Below are positions 43,644-58,980 of a stretch of 64,000 nucleotides of DNA, one piece after another. A program made the position numbers and the translations under genes. The stretch is from the IMG/VR virus record IMGVR_UViG_3300009370_000001; one strand, 5' to 3'. How positions within the stretch are numbered: position 1 is the first letter of the stretch; every line of letters starts with the position of its first letter. Below the pieces are notes generated by a model. It did not search any database, was not told the origin of the DNA, and saw nothing but the letters and a program-made list of their open reading frames with translations. The DNA is from a virus. Lineage: Duplodnaviria; Caudoviricetes.

Positions 43644-43889
43644 ATGACCTATTTTGTATATGGGATTACGGACTGTCCGGCCTGTCTCCGAGCGTGTGCA
43701 GACTTGATGGAAGCAGATTTAGAATATGTTTTTATAGAAACTGATTTTGCACCCACTTATCGATCTCAACTCAAAAAGCAATATCGACGCTCCACATTTC
43801 CTATTATTATTAGAGAGAGTGGGCCCGAAACGTTAATAATTGGGGGCCATGACGATTTAACCATCCATTTAGCCAAGCGTTCTGGTTGA
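43644..43889 (+). CDS. Glutaredoxin-like protein
   Basis: CPAC, TFPII, IIGGHDDL. Confidence 0.8.
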   Translation: MTYFVYGITDCPACLRACADLMEADLEYVFIETDFAPTYRSQLKKQYRRSTFPIIIRESGPETLIIGGHDDLTIHLAKRSG

Positions 43890-43930
43890 CAAAAACTTTA
43901 CTTGCAACTGATCCTCACGCGTGCTATATT
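43886..43930 (+). promoter_or_regulatory. Early promoter (variant of the repeated element)
   Basis: TTGACA (contains the upstream stop), then TTGCAA-17-TATATT with TG extension. Confidence 0.6.
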
Positions 43931-45111
43931 ATGATCAGACACATACTTACTATGTGGAACTTAAACGAGGAGACTTAGTAAGATGGGTAACAGACTGGGG
44001 GATTTATGCAGCGAGCGCGGATGGGTACGTCCAACGAGAATACCCACAATATGCTTACGGCGTCATAATGGAAGTATCCCATCGAGACCCCGATGCTGTA
44101 GTGGTTTATTGCTACGATTCCAAACACGAATTCGCGGAACAAGACACGTGGGTTATCCTGCATCTGGTTCACGACGAATTCGAGTTAGTAAGCGAGGGTT
44201 AAAATGTGTCTAAGGCGACCGAAGAAGAGGCGCTGGAAGCGCTTAAAAAAGAAATCCGGGTATGGTGTCACACACCATTTTTGGTTAATACAGGAACAGA
44301 TGACGGGGGGCGTTATCTGCAAATCTGGATCGAACGCCAGGAACCATCAGCACGTTTGGACGCCTGGATGGTAGAAATGCTCCCCGGTAGTAAATATATG
44401 GGTTGGCGCTTAATTGTAAGCAAGTGCCCACCCGACTATATAAGATTATTTATTTTAAATAAAAAACAAAAGGATTGGTAATGGAGGTTGGGGAACTGGT
44501 TTGTTTATACCGACGAAAGCATAAAGGGATTGGAATCGTCTTAGAAAAAGAAACGATTAGCGATGAAAAAATAAGAATAATAGAGATTGCTCAAAAAGCC
44601 GACTGGAAACAAAAAGAAGAACTAAAACGCAAAGCTCTTAGTGGGGCGTCTCAAAAAGGATTAATCGAAGCGGCCTTTCTCTATAACTTGTGGCAAGCGA
44701 ACGCGAAGCTCAAAAAGGATTTTGTTTATATTAAATGGTTTCAGTGTCCCTCGGAGTATGAACAGACAAAAACTACCACGGATGCTGATTGGTTTCCGGT
44801 TGATTGGGTGGGAAGAATAAACTAACTCTATACTTAGTTATGTGGCAACTACTCACATTCCAGTCTACAAAATCGGGGATCTTGTAAAGTGTATTTATGA
44901 TCTATTCGATCACTACCAGTATTTCTGGGATCAAGAGCCCGCAAGTGGCTATCCTTTCCACGGGATTATCATAGATATCCAAGACAATATGCTGATGGAC
45001 GAAGAGGTTCACGAATACGGTTATGAGAAACTTTATATTGTTCGCTGTTTCGATGGACACGTCAGATTTTTTGCTCACTGGGAAATGCGGCTCGTGTCAA
45101 CATCTTCTTGA
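43921..45111 (+). other. Four small genes, three with SH3/KOW-like starts (LKRGDLV, MEVGELV, YKIGDLV)
   Basis: 43921-44202, 44206-44481, 44475-44825, 44842-45111. Confidence 0.55.
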
Positions 45112-45151
45112 CAACTTTGTGGTTGACACCGGTATTAGAAGATGCTATATT
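45108..45151 (+). promoter_or_regulatory. Repeated early promoter element
   Basis: TTGACA-9-TTGACA-17-TATATT; directly upstream of tRNA-Leu; TGA ends the 44842 gene. Confidence 0.85.
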
Positions 45152-45159
45152 AAGAACAT

Positions 45160-45247
45160 GGCCGAGTGGTGGAATAGGTAGACACACCGGACTTAAAATC
45201 CGTTGATCATTATGATCGTGAGGGTTCAAGTCCCTCCTCGGCTACCA
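45160..45247 (+). tRNA. trnL: tRNA-Leu(UAA), encoded CCA
   Basis: Acceptor GGCCGAG/CTCGGCT, anticodon loop CT-TAA-AA, long variable arm, GAGGG-TTCAAGT-CCCTC T-arm, ACCA. Confidence 0.92.
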
Positions 45248-45248
45248 C

Positions 45249-45303
45249 CTTACATCTTCTTGACAACTTTTGGCTTGACCACACAAACTGGGCATGCTAT
45301 ATT
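45249..45303 (+). promoter_or_regulatory. Repeated early promoter element
   Basis: CTTACA-5-TTGACA-9-TTGACC-17-TATATT. Confidence 0.85.
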
Positions 45304-56141: not shown

Positions 56142-56192
56142 CATTCACTTGACAACTTTTCCCTGGACAAACCTACGTACCCATGCTATATT
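56138..56192 (+). promoter_or_regulatory. Repeated early promoter element
   Basis: TTGACA-5-TTGACA-9-TGGACA-17-TATATT. Confidence 0.85.
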
Positions 56193-56217
56193 GTATGTGT
56201 AGAAAGGAAAGAACCCT

Positions 56218-57474
56218 ATGAGCGACGACAAACCCACTCCCTTTGACTTGAACAAGCACACGGCGCGGCTGCTTATGCGCGAGCCGTTTTTCGCTGGGCT
56301 GTCTCGGCGGATCGACAAGACCCCGACGACTGAGATCCCGACTGCCGGTGTTCGCATTAATCCCGAACGGGCACAGTTTGAGTTGATGTATAACCCTGAC
56401 TTCATGGCGAGCCTTAGCGACAAGCACCGACTTGCGATCTTGAAGCATGAGTTTTACCATATCATCTTTGAGCATGTGACACACCGCAAGCCTGCCGATG
56501 GCATTAGCCGCCTGGACAACATTGCGATGGATCTGGCAATCAACGGCTTGCCCGACATGAAGACTAACCTTCCCAACGATGCCGAGCCAGGACCACCGAC
56601 CGGATCGGCTGGTGAGCCCATGAAGGCATGCATCCCCGGAGAAGGGCCATTCGCTCACTTGCCTTGTGAGAAGTCCTATGAGTGGTACAAGGCAGCACTC
56701 CAAGACATGCAGAAAGAGAAGCCAGAAGGCGAGCCAGGGGAGCCAGGACAAGGCGAGCCCGGTGATGGCGATCCCTTCGGCGGCATGGATGCGCTGGACG
56801 ATCACGGCGAGTTTGGCGAGGGTCAAGGCACCGCAGACGAGATCGCTAAGGAACGTCTGAAGGAAGCGGTAAAGCAGGCAGCAGAGGAAGCCGAGAAGGC
56901 TAATAACTGGGGCACTGTTTCAGGAAACACCCGGCGCGACATTATGGATCGCATCGCTACTAAGGTTGACTGGCGCAAGGTGTTGCGTTATTTCGTGAAG
57001 ACCACGCAACGCTCCGACAAGACCAGCACGCCGAGGAAACTGAACCGCAGATTTCCACGCATCCACGCAGGAAAGCGCGTCCGTCGTCACGCTCGCATTG
57101 CTATCAGCATCGACCAGTCTGGATCGGTGGATGATAAAATGCTTCAAGCGTTCTTCTCCGAGTTGAACAAGTTGGCCGAGATTGCCGAGTTTACTGTTAT
57201 CCCATTCGATTCAGTAGTGGGCGAGGATAAGATTTATGTATGGAAGAAGGGTGCAACCCGCAGAACCGAGCGCGTTATGTGCGGCGGGACTTGCTTTAAT
57301 GCTCCAACCAAGTACGTGAACGAACACGGATTCGATGGACATATTATCCTTACTGACCTGATGGCACCTAAGCCGATGGCGAGCAAGTGTCAACGCATGT
57401 GGATGACGACTAAGGCATACGCGGCGCGTCCCTACTTCCAGACTAACGAGCGAGTCATCGCAATCGACAGTTGA
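56218..57474 (+). CDS. HExxH metallopeptidase-like plus vWA domain protein (MoxR partner)
   Basis: LKHEFYH, NIAMDLAIN, acidic G/P linker, ISIDQSGSV (MIDAS), GGT.F, ILTD. Confidence 0.85.
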   Translation: MSDDKPTPFDLNKHTARLLMREPFFAGLSRRIDKTPTTEIPTAGVRINPERAQFELMYNPDFMASLSDKHRLAILKHEFYHIIFEHVTHRKPADGISRLDNIAMDLAINGLPDMKTNLPNDAEPGPPTGSAGEPMKACIPGEGPFAHLPCEKSYEWYKAALQDMQKEKPEGEPGEPGQGEPGDGDPFGGMDALDDHGEFGEGQGTADEIAKERLKEAVKQAAEEAEKANNWGTVSGNTRRDIMDRIATKVDWRKVLRYFVKTTQRSDKTSTPRKLNRRFPRIHAGKRVRRHARIAISIDQSGSVDDKMLQAFFSELNKLAEIAEFTVIPFDSVVGEDKIYVWKKGATRRTERVMCGGTCFNAPTKYVNEHGFDGHIILTDLMAPKPMASKCQRMWMTTKAYAARPYFQTNERVIAIDS

Positions 57475-57524
57475 CAAGCACTTGACATTTCGGGGTAGAC
57501 AACCTGCCCCGAATATGTTATATT
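57471..57524 (+). promoter_or_regulatory. Repeated early promoter element
   Basis: TTGACA-5-TTGACA-8-TAGACA-17-TATATT. Confidence 0.8.
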
Positions 57525-57552
57525 GCTATATACAAACAGGAGATCCCTACTT

Positions 57553-58929
57553 ATGGCTCGCACAACCTACGCCGACCGCTTGAAAGCCCTTATCACCAAC
57601 CCCGCTATGTCTGCGCGTGACTGCCAGTTTGCAAGCAGCTTGCTTGCCTACTACGTCAAGCGCAAGTCGCTGACCAGTGGCCGCGCTCGCTGTGTGCGCG
57701 AGCTTGAGGCACGGTACAGCGCCGAGGCAGTAGCCGAGCGTGCAGCCCGCACCGCACCGCTAACGGCTCGATTGCAGGCGCTCACTGCCCGTGTGACCGA
57801 GGGTTCATGGGCTGGCGGGTTCGTGGAGTCTTTGACCGAGCAAGTGGCGTCAGGACGCAACCTAAGCCCACGCCAGATCGAGATCCTGGAGAAGATCGAG
57901 AGCGAGCATAGCGACGAGGCTATTAATGCTGCCGCTTCCTGGGATGCCGACTTCTCCGATGACATGCGCGACCGGCTGACCGTTGCGGCACGTTATTATC
58001 GTCGCACTGGCTACTTTACTAACCTTGTGGATCGTGCGTTGACCCCTGATGGCCAACCGACCGCATTTATTCCGACTGAAAAGCAGTATCGGAAGGTCAC
58101 CGAAAACAAGTATGCACAGAAGGTATTGACCGCGCACTATGACGCGCCAAAGTACGCCACTGGCTCGATGGTGCAACTGCGCCCGAGTTGCGGCTATCTC
58201 GCACGTTCCAAAGCAGGCGACAAGCCCTGTGTCGTTATCTCGACCACGGAGCCCATCGTGAGCGCGTGCAAGGGTGCAAAGATGTATCGGATCTTGCCCA
58301 TCGGATCCGCAACTATGATCACAATCGAGGAGCGTCACATTAAGAAGGCGCGAGGAGTATAAACATGAAGAGAATCCTAACCAACAGTAAAGTGATCGAG
58401 GCATGGCAGCGCGGAGAACGCGCCGCTAACCATCGTGGCACACTTCAATGTTACAGTGATGGCACGCTGTATAGCTACAACCTGCATATCGGCCAGCGCA
58501 CACCGTCAGGAGTGTGCATTGTGGGCGATTACACGGCTCCTGGCGGGGGGTTCAAGTCAGTGACTACCTCGTGCCATGTCGGACGCGCCAAGCGCGTTCC
58601 TGGGGTCACTGTGATGCACCCGCTTGTGTGGGTCGATTCTCCGTTGAGTAACGAGGAAATCCCATTCTAACCCGAGACAGATTATGGAAGACAACAATAT
58701 CATTAACCTTGTCGAAATCCTTGAGGAGAAGGAAAGACAGAAAGAGAGAGAAGAAGAAATGGAAAAGGCCGAGCTACGCGATCAACTGCAATGGGTGTTG
58801 CAGAAACTCCATGAGAAGAACATCACCTATCGAGCAGAAGACGAAGAAGAAATAGGGTTTGATGCTTATGAGCGAGTTCCTAAACGTAACTGGTTCCAGC
58901 GTTTTCTGGACCGCTTTCGATACGATTGA
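57553..58929 (+). other. Three hypothetical genes (57553-58362 with C-terminal SH3-like domain, 58365-58670, 58684-58929)
   Basis: Abutting ORFs with RBS; the last stop lies in the next promoter element. Confidence 0.6.
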
Positions 58930-58980
58930 CACACACTTGACAACCTAAACCTTGACAGTCACCCCGAAAAGTGCTATATT
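58926..58980 (+). promoter_or_regulatory. Repeated early promoter element
   Basis: TTGACA-5-TTGACA-9-TTGACA-17-TATATT. Confidence 0.9.

Follow-up and report, generated by a model that had tools for sequence, protein, structure and literature searches.

The 64,000-nucleotide stretch of phage DNA studied here, which we call the window (IMG/VR record IMGVR_UViG_3300009370_000001), carries a 55-bp cassette in which two upstream TTGACA boxes precede a -35/-10 pair at fixed distances. There are 14 full copies and one partial copy between 43.9 and 59.0 kb, every one on the + strand. In its composition the cassette is a putative sigma-70 early promoter of a phage, set apart by an upstream element specific to the lineage, and no new kind of system. 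With moderate confidence, we propose that it constitutes the early-promoter class of one marine phage lineage and that the two upstream boxes form a separate site for a dimeric or two-headed factor.

The cassette array in the window

A search with the pattern TTGACA-N5-TTKACA-N9-TNGAC at no more than one mismatch returned 11 matches between 47.4 and 59.0 kb, all on the + strand, where 100 dinucleotide-preserving shuffles of the window gave an expectation of 0.00. A position-weight scan and direct reading added four sites (45097, 45249, 57471 and the partial 43886). The shared form is TTGACA-N5-TT(G/T)ACA-N9-T(T/G/A)GAC-N17-TGnTATA(A/T)T (Table 1). The original prediction, made from the sequence of the window, described a three-box cassette repeated about 14 times, and this repeat is confirmed in full. 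A partial site at 43886 (a two-box form with TTGCAA at -35) and an 8-bp second spacer at 57471 were both found as described; the site placed at 45108 is a real cassette, although it starts at 45097 and 45108 is its box 2.

All 15 sites have a TTGACA-like -35 and a TATAAT-like -10 hexamer separated by 17 +/- 1 bp. The sigma-70-type early promoters that had been claimed are supported by these features as putative promoters. TGn stands ahead of the -10 in 15/15 sites, so that the earlier description of TG in most copies was right about the motif and understated its frequency. The two-box pair at no more than one mismatch occurs 12 times in the window, 12/12 backed by a -35/-10 and 0 on the minus strand, and it is likewise attached to a -35/-10 in the relatives G005 (13/13) and G009 (8/8). 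The upstream boxes share the strand of the -35 in 14/14 window copies.

A second sigma-70-type class is found in the replication module of the window, and also in G005. It consists of an A-tract, TTGAC, N17 and (TGT)TATAWT and has no upstream boxes; its A-tract occupies the position that the boxes take in the early class. Core-region promoters had been predicted to lack the pair, and those at 5536, 6597, 10594, 24528, 28832 and 31650 indeed have an A-rich tract instead. An UP element is made of A/T-rich tracts at -38 to -59; the cassette has no such tracts there, its consensus being GACATTCTCTTGACAACTTAACC.

Range of the cassette and selection on its upstream boxes

Scanning IMG/VR with the full pattern gave at least 117 loci; with relaxed detection there are at least 448 distinct copies in these loci and one complete relative, and copy figures for the lineage refer to the matches listed. 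Proteins in common with the window or G005 are present in 112 of the 117 listed loci and, on this protein content, the cassette therefore belongs to one uncultured marine phage lineage. The five remaining listed loci are short; the contigs of four of these yielded a related locus too. Relatives of the window DnaE occur in at least 594 IMG/VR stretches (the best 80 are 78-95% identical). Every run found to contain the sequence is a DNA run of a marine or seawater metagenome; runs X1-X4 of one seawater study (P1) cover 95-99% of the window.

Of 13 near-complete relatives, 11 have 2-10 exact copies, which with few exceptions share a strand and mostly form a single block of about 6-15 kb; the linear records of G004 and G001 are cut within this block. 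The reversed control pattern had 0 matches in the near-complete relatives. Two outgroups are cassette-free, the complete G221 (DnaE about 66% identical) and the 96%-complete G220 (57%). In G221 the -35 follows an A-tract or a terminator hairpin, and in G220 it follows another, unrelated sequence. Conservation of the upstream hexamers in related phages was one of the points on which the original prediction was to stand or fall, and they are conserved lineage-wide. Among cultured phages, BLAST searches of 50,697 records with the early region, for near and for distant similarity, found no match, the best DnaE match is 31% identical, and the cassette query gave chance matches only (a Salmonella phage match, on reading, was unrelated). 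Our literature search found no paper on tandem TTGACA boxes in phage promoters.

Spacing within the cassette is strict. With free spacing allowed, and among the matches listed, box 1 and box 2 are separated by N5 in 265/265 copies, box 2 and the -35 by N9 in 245/265 and N8 in 19/265, and the -35 and -10 by 17 bp in 223/265 and by 16-18 bp in 265/265. No compensation between spacers was seen: of the N8 copies, 36 have a 17-bp -35/-10 spacer and one has 18 bp. The TGn positions are less constant across the lineage than in the window (T 63% and G 67%, among the matches listed).

Base conservation was measured by leave-one-out, each box being scored only in cassettes defined by the remaining elements. 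Mean mismatches to TTGACA are 0.31 for box 1, 0.21 for box 2 and 1.10 for the true -35. T2, A4, C5 and A6 reach 96-100% in box 1 and 100% in box 2, with G3 at 89% and 83%, respectively (else T or A in box 2). The true -35 has T1 at 100%, T2 at 92%, G3 at 95%, A4 and C5 at 89%, and a sixth base that is A in 26% and T in 39%. By its base frequencies this is the classic sigma region-4 pattern, TTG strongest and the sixth base free, and boxes 1 and 2 do not follow it. The upstream boxes are thus conserved by a different rule from the -35 and, on these profiles, are probably read by something other than sigma.

Conservation extends beyond the hexamers. C precedes box 1 in 78% and box 2 in 93% of cases (-1 and +10, positions unused in detection) and T or A follows each upstream box, giving a repeat unit C-TTGACA-W. 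The consensus over the two boxes is C-TTGACA-TTY-N-C-TTGACA-A, and the constant upstream element measures 22 bp. Spacer identity is 0.44 within a locus and 0.35 between loci, where column composition predicts 0.36. Because the spacers are this close to the expectation, the sequences indicate that the copies are neither recent duplicates nor products of gene conversion, the boxes being kept while the rest drifts. Judged by this comparison, the upstream boxes are under selection.

The pattern in bacterial genomes

Across 596 Gbp of bacterial genomes, scanned for the boxes together with a -35 and -10, there are 36 scattered single matches, none repeated within a genome. Three of them are contigs of this phage lineage binned into metagenome-assembled genomes: a WOR-3 "chromosome" with runs of N (CP070664.1; L344-L346), Neomarinimicrobiota MED589 and Bacteroidetes UBA12012 (L144, L153). 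These are probably binning contamination and no evidence of a host. Another seven are one orthologous promoter of a MarR gene in Clostridia. As far as these scans reach, the cassette is not a host-genome motif.

The Clostridia promoter deserves a separate remark. It belongs to a MarR-family gene in Christensenella and other Clostridia metagenome-assembled genomes (L138, L141, L143, L148, L150, L158, L159) and has the same three-box geometry, followed at the start site by the palindrome CTAACTAGGTTAG.

What the upstream boxes may bind

The third box TTGAC[T/A], the 17-bp spacer and TGn-TATA(T/A)T would form a near-consensus extended -10 promoter for the host primary-sigma polymerase. A ribosome-binding site and a start codon opening at least 30 codons follow 395 of 431 copies, at a median of 26 nt past the -10 (interquartile range 23-30). 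If transcription starts about 7 nt past the -10, the leader would measure about 19 nt before the Shine-Dalgarno site and start codon, and the boxes would lie at about -61 to -56 and -50 to -45, where UP elements and class I activators are found, in lieu of the A-tract of the second class. The 11-bp phase would place both boxes on one helix face, and the 15 bp to the -35 would make it a face other than that of sigma region 4. The direct repeat, the invariant TnACA core and the fixed, non-overlapping upstream position together suggest a head-to-tail site for a dimeric or two-headed DNA-binding protein. Such a factor would boost or gate the early class specifically, in the manner of OmpR and other class I activators, which act at -40 to -60. 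If it activates, it has to precede phage gene expression and be present at injection, and would therefore be a host protein or one delivered by the virion. As a by-product, the 22-bp element would supply the stop codon of the upstream gene and mark the borders at which modules are reshuffled.

The original prediction offered either a dimeric regulator, host or phage-encoded, or extra sigma4-like contacts. The dimeric regulator is the better of the two, as 11-bp direct repeats with an invariant TnACA suit it better than they suit sigma; its phage-encoded OmpR-type version is unsupported, and extra sigma4 contacts are disfavoured by the leave-one-out difference between boxes 1 and 2 and the true -35.

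Several observations weigh against the proposed reading. The core promoter is strong on paper already, and an activator is not obviously needed. No Trans_reg_C domain (the OmpR-type winged helix) was found in five complete relatives, and no recognisable DNA-binding domain in the early proteins searched with Pfam, PHROGs and Atlas. In 201 Marinimicrobia genomes the pair was found only in apparent binned phage contigs (3/4 matches). No RNA run with window sequence was found. Finally, a few triple-box sets in G003, G012 and G016 come without a canonical -10. These sets fit boxes that bind something themselves and, equally, a polymerase trap.

The sets without a -10 are clustered at L383:700-1100 (G003), L365 (G012 27850-28300) and L397 (G016 about 102700-102960). 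They adjoin a conserved G/C-rich element, GGGGGGTACCCCCCCTCCCCC...CCGGAAAGT, which has no Rfam match and nothing like it in the window.

Alternatively, the boxes may act on the polymerase itself, as extra docking sites of the -35 type or as a non-A/T replacement of an UP element, capturing or sequestering holoenzyme with no factor involved. The extended -35 consensus is tcTTGACat, which the boxes match, and they fall within -40 to -62, the usual zone of the C-terminal domain of the alpha subunit (alpha-CTD). Their common strand with the -35 and the triple-box sets without a -10 would also be expected. We nevertheless consider this explanation unlikely. The profile of boxes 1 and 2, with ACA invariant and G3 variable, is unlike that of the working -35 of the same cassettes, and a holoenzyme has one sigma region 4. 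In addition, alpha-CTD favours A/T minor grooves, and the other promoters of this phage do use A-tracts; the pair, with box 2 at 15 bp from the -35, would be on a different helical face.

Should a protein other than polymerase bind the pair, a host response regulator of the OmpR/PhoB family (phosphate or stress type) is one candidate, and early transcription would then follow host physiology. Direct repeats spaced at 11 bp around a TTnACA core are of this family's kind, the boxes would lie at about -62 to -44, as OmpR C3/F3-type sites do, and no winged-helix regulator was found in the five complete phage relatives. The B. subtilis PhoP consensus consists of TT(A/T/C)ACA-N5 repeats, and OmpR sites lie at -40 to -60. 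An analogy with PhoP had been drawn and holds for the geometry; it fails at position 3, where G, excluded by the PhoP consensus, is found in 83-89%, and in the full, separate -35 that the cassette keeps, unlike Pho-type promoters. The element is also confined to one phage lineage, with the reservation that the bacterial-wide scan demanded a -35/-10 too and the pair alone was scanned in Marinimicrobia only. Taken together, we regard a regulator of this specific family as quite doubtful.

Returning to the dimeric or two-headed factor in general, a bolder version is that the whole early programme of the lineage is gated by a factor already present, either a host protein of the response-regulator type or one injected from the capsid, that docks on two non-A/T repeats replacing the UP element. 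We put this forward tentatively, as possible rather than probable. If true, it would be an activator-dependent, condition-sensing class of early promoter, of a kind not yet described in phages.

Gene context and module borders

The cassette region holds dozens of small open reading frames (ORFs) together with genes for a MoxR-type ATPase and a DUF2201/VWA protein; one window cassette would drive a tRNA-Leu. Upstream ORFs often end inside the cassette: in 194 of 404 cases (48%) the stop is the TGA of box 1, in 48/404 that of box 2, and in 21/404 a stop at +20. Terminator-like sites in the region number 23 against 16.7 +/- 4.2 expected and are not above chance; successive cassettes are therefore probably transcribed by read-through.

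Homologous neighbours stay adjacent in 24 of 68 cases (35%) across a cassette and in 48 of 72 (67%) within a module, these counts being phylogenetically non-independent, and the order of modules differs between the window and G005. This comparison suggests that the cassettes behave as module borders too. They would in this be analogous to PeSLs, the strong sigma-70-like early promoters of T4-type phages that carry a stem-loop terminator and have an AT-rich tract upstream of the -35 (Arbiol 2010, PMC2839356; Comeau 2014, PMC4122927).

It is conceivable that the 22-bp element is kept mainly as such a border, supplying a stop codon and a promoter for safe shuffling. Besides the PeSL precedent, the stops at box 1 and box 2, the lower adjacency across cassettes and the changed module order agree with this. 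Homology would suffice for recombination, however, and invariant bases with an exact 11-bp phase would be unneeded; spacers of one genome have diverged as much as those of different genomes, and neither a general stem-loop nor a terminator signal above chance is present. Helix lengths equal those of shuffled controls (3.79 vs 3.72; 3.19 vs 3.01), and folding energy is merely about 0.8 kcal/mol below column-shuffled controls. With the adjacency counts limited by shared ancestry, a border as the main function appears quite unlikely to us, and we retain it as a by-product of a factor-binding promoter.

Two window cassettes do have a G/C hairpin that encloses the -35, GGGGG-TAGACA-GCCCCC at 54523-54577 and TTCGGGG...CCCCGAA at 57471-57524. 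Lineage-wide, 15 helices of 6 bp or more surround the -35, against about 4 expected (among the matches listed), in a minority of cassettes.

Candidates for the binding factor

Most relatives encode a free-standing mini-protein of about 80 aa that resembles sigma region 4, with a Cys-rich N-terminus (four conserved Cys) and the helix-turn-helix of region 4.2. It scores above the Pfam cut-off for Sigma70_r4, its best matches among solved structures are Taq and E. coli sigma region 4, and 10 of the 13 near-complete relatives that we examined have its gene, as do 388 IMG/VR stretches. The idea that the boxes are bound by this product of the relatives' own replication module draws on that wide presence and structural match, and we rejected it on distribution and residues. 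The mini-protein and the cassette are distributed differently: G003 and G012, which are complete and cassette-bearing, lack the mini-protein, as do the nearest relatives G013-G015 and the window, including the syntenic slot (sensitive HMM search, best E = 0.39), and it is present in the cassette-free G221 and G220. It has F and V in place of R584 and E585 of E. coli sigma-70, which we take to be base-contacting residues. No separate promoter precedes its gene, whose translation is coupled to that of a gene of the replication module. As the dedicated binder of the boxes it is therefore highly improbable.

Four of five complete genomes also contain a weak Sigma70_r2-like ORF of 235-260 aa, which presumably serves another promoter class; with the mini-protein in the same genomes, the two could be a split phage sigma. 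Part of the slot of the sigma4-like gene is filled in the window by an extremely acidic, low-complexity protein of 301 aa (27923-28828), which might mimic DNA or serve as an internal protein.

A sigma-32 reading, with box 2 and a C-tract in the spacer as its elements, was dropped: the distance is about 19 bp, and sigma-32 promoters have 13-15 bp.

Other candidates came from gene content. The protein at 53734-54522 has two retroviral-type CCHC zinc knuckles, CGHCYQQGHNRRSCP and CSYCREGGHSRRTCP. It has a homologue in 11/11 cassette-bearing genomes, as the first gene after a cassette in nine, and also in the cassette-free G220. Between five cassette-bearing and two cassette-free genomes, which are few and related, five genes differ and none is a clear regulator. 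One of the five, 41704-42675, is nucleotidyltransferase-like, with a TGSLANYNWSKYSDxDLH core (G-S...D-x-D) and a weak DrrA/SidM_N match. Present in 5/5 cassette-bearing full genomes examined and 0/2 cassette-free ones, it starts with an N-terminal W-x-(E/D)-(F/Y) leader resembling a putative capsid-targeting tag, and we treat it as a lead only.

Phage early promoters set the speed at which host polymerase is captured, and here a very common ocean lineage has fixed a pair of boxes in strict phase where an A-rich upstream element is usual. If a factor binds them, it would give a handle on how these phages sense or commandeer their host. The 22-bp element is in any case a clean computational marker of the lineage's early region; the cassettes may supply compact, strong promoter parts, and their borders may account for the reshuffling of small-early-gene arrays.

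The window and its features

The window is a strand-biased block of a large phage and shows synteny to complete genomes of 185-205 kb. Its genes specify a DnaE-type polymerase, DnaB helicase, class II ribonucleotide reductase, GroEL, RecA, Dam, a GMP reductase/IMPDH-family enzyme and three tRNAs.

Table 1. Positions of the cassettes and of related features; positions are those of the window unless a locus handle is given.
Feature	Position	Strand	Context or remark
Partial cassette	43886..43930	+	Single upstream TTGACA; -35 TTGCAA; TGc-TATATT
Cassette, degenerate box 1 TCAACA	45097..45151	+	Precedes, and would drive, tRNA-Leu(TAA) 45160-45247
Cassette, degenerate box 1 CTTACA, -35 TTGACC	45249..45303	+	Ahead of ORF 45361-45744
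Full cassette, -35 TGGACA	47418..47472	+	Box 1 TGA is the stop of ORF 47245-47421
Full cassette	49318..49372	+	ORF 48955-49332 ends on the TGA of box 2
Full cassette, box 2 TTTACA	51016..51070	+	Box 1 holds the stop of ORF 50741-51019
Full cassette	51325..51379	+	Ahead of ORFs 51407-51757 and 51758-52126
Full cassette	52731..52785	+	Box 1 holds the stop of ORF 52483-52734
Full cassette, -10 TATAAT	53352..53406	+	Ahead of ORF 53436-53657
Full cassette	53654..53708	+	Ahead of double CCHC zinc-knuckle protein gene 53734-54522
Full cassette, -35 TAGACA	54523..54577	+	GGGGG/CCCCC hairpin encloses the -35
Full cassette	54751..54805	+	Ahead of MoxR-type AAA ATPase gene 54847-55935
Full cassette	56138..56192	+	Ahead of DUF2201/VWA protein gene 56218-57474
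Cassette, 8-bp second spacer	57471..57524	+	Hairpin around the -35; ahead of ORF 57553-58362
Full cassette, last of the array	58926..58980	+	Ahead of ORF 59004-59195
Second-class promoters	5536, 6597, 7496, 7706, 10594, 24528, 28832, 31650		Replication module
Sigma region-4-like mini-protein, examples	L118:1360-1617, L119:1399-1641, L120:1366-1635, L121:1486-1716		Relatives, outside the window

Comparison with known systems

The stoperators of mycobacteriophage L5 are single 13-bp repressor sites spread across a temperate phage genome. The cassette boxes share with them a high copy number, asymmetry, a sequence like the TTGACA of a -35 and a single orientation, but they are paired, tied to early promoters and gathered in a single block.

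With the boxes of the OmpR/PhoB family, the cassette has in common hexamer direct repeats at an 11-bp period (N5 in 265/265, among the matches listed), a TTnACA-type core and a position just upstream of the polymerase contact zone. It departs from them in its G at position 3 (89% in box 1, 83% in box 2), in its separate consensus -35, and in that no such regulator was found in the five complete phage relatives.

T4 early promoters have conserved A-rich UP-like regions that are tuned by Alt/ModA ADP-ribosylation of alpha. A mention of this is found in PMC3184105. Like them, the cassette is a phage-specific class, would use the host sigma-70 polymerase and is conserved out to about -60; unlike them, it carries two non-A/T direct repeats in a strict 11-bp phase where theirs is A-rich.

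PeSLs also resemble the cassette, being repeated strong sigma-70-like promoters set between the small ORFs of a plastic region, at a fixed distance from the ribosome-binding site and start codon; PeSLs are associated with module reshuffling, and the cassette may be so too. The cassette differs from a PeSL in that it has no general stem-loop or terminator and belongs to an unrelated phage lineage with a DnaE-type polymerase, and in that two TTGACA boxes take the place of the AT-rich tract.

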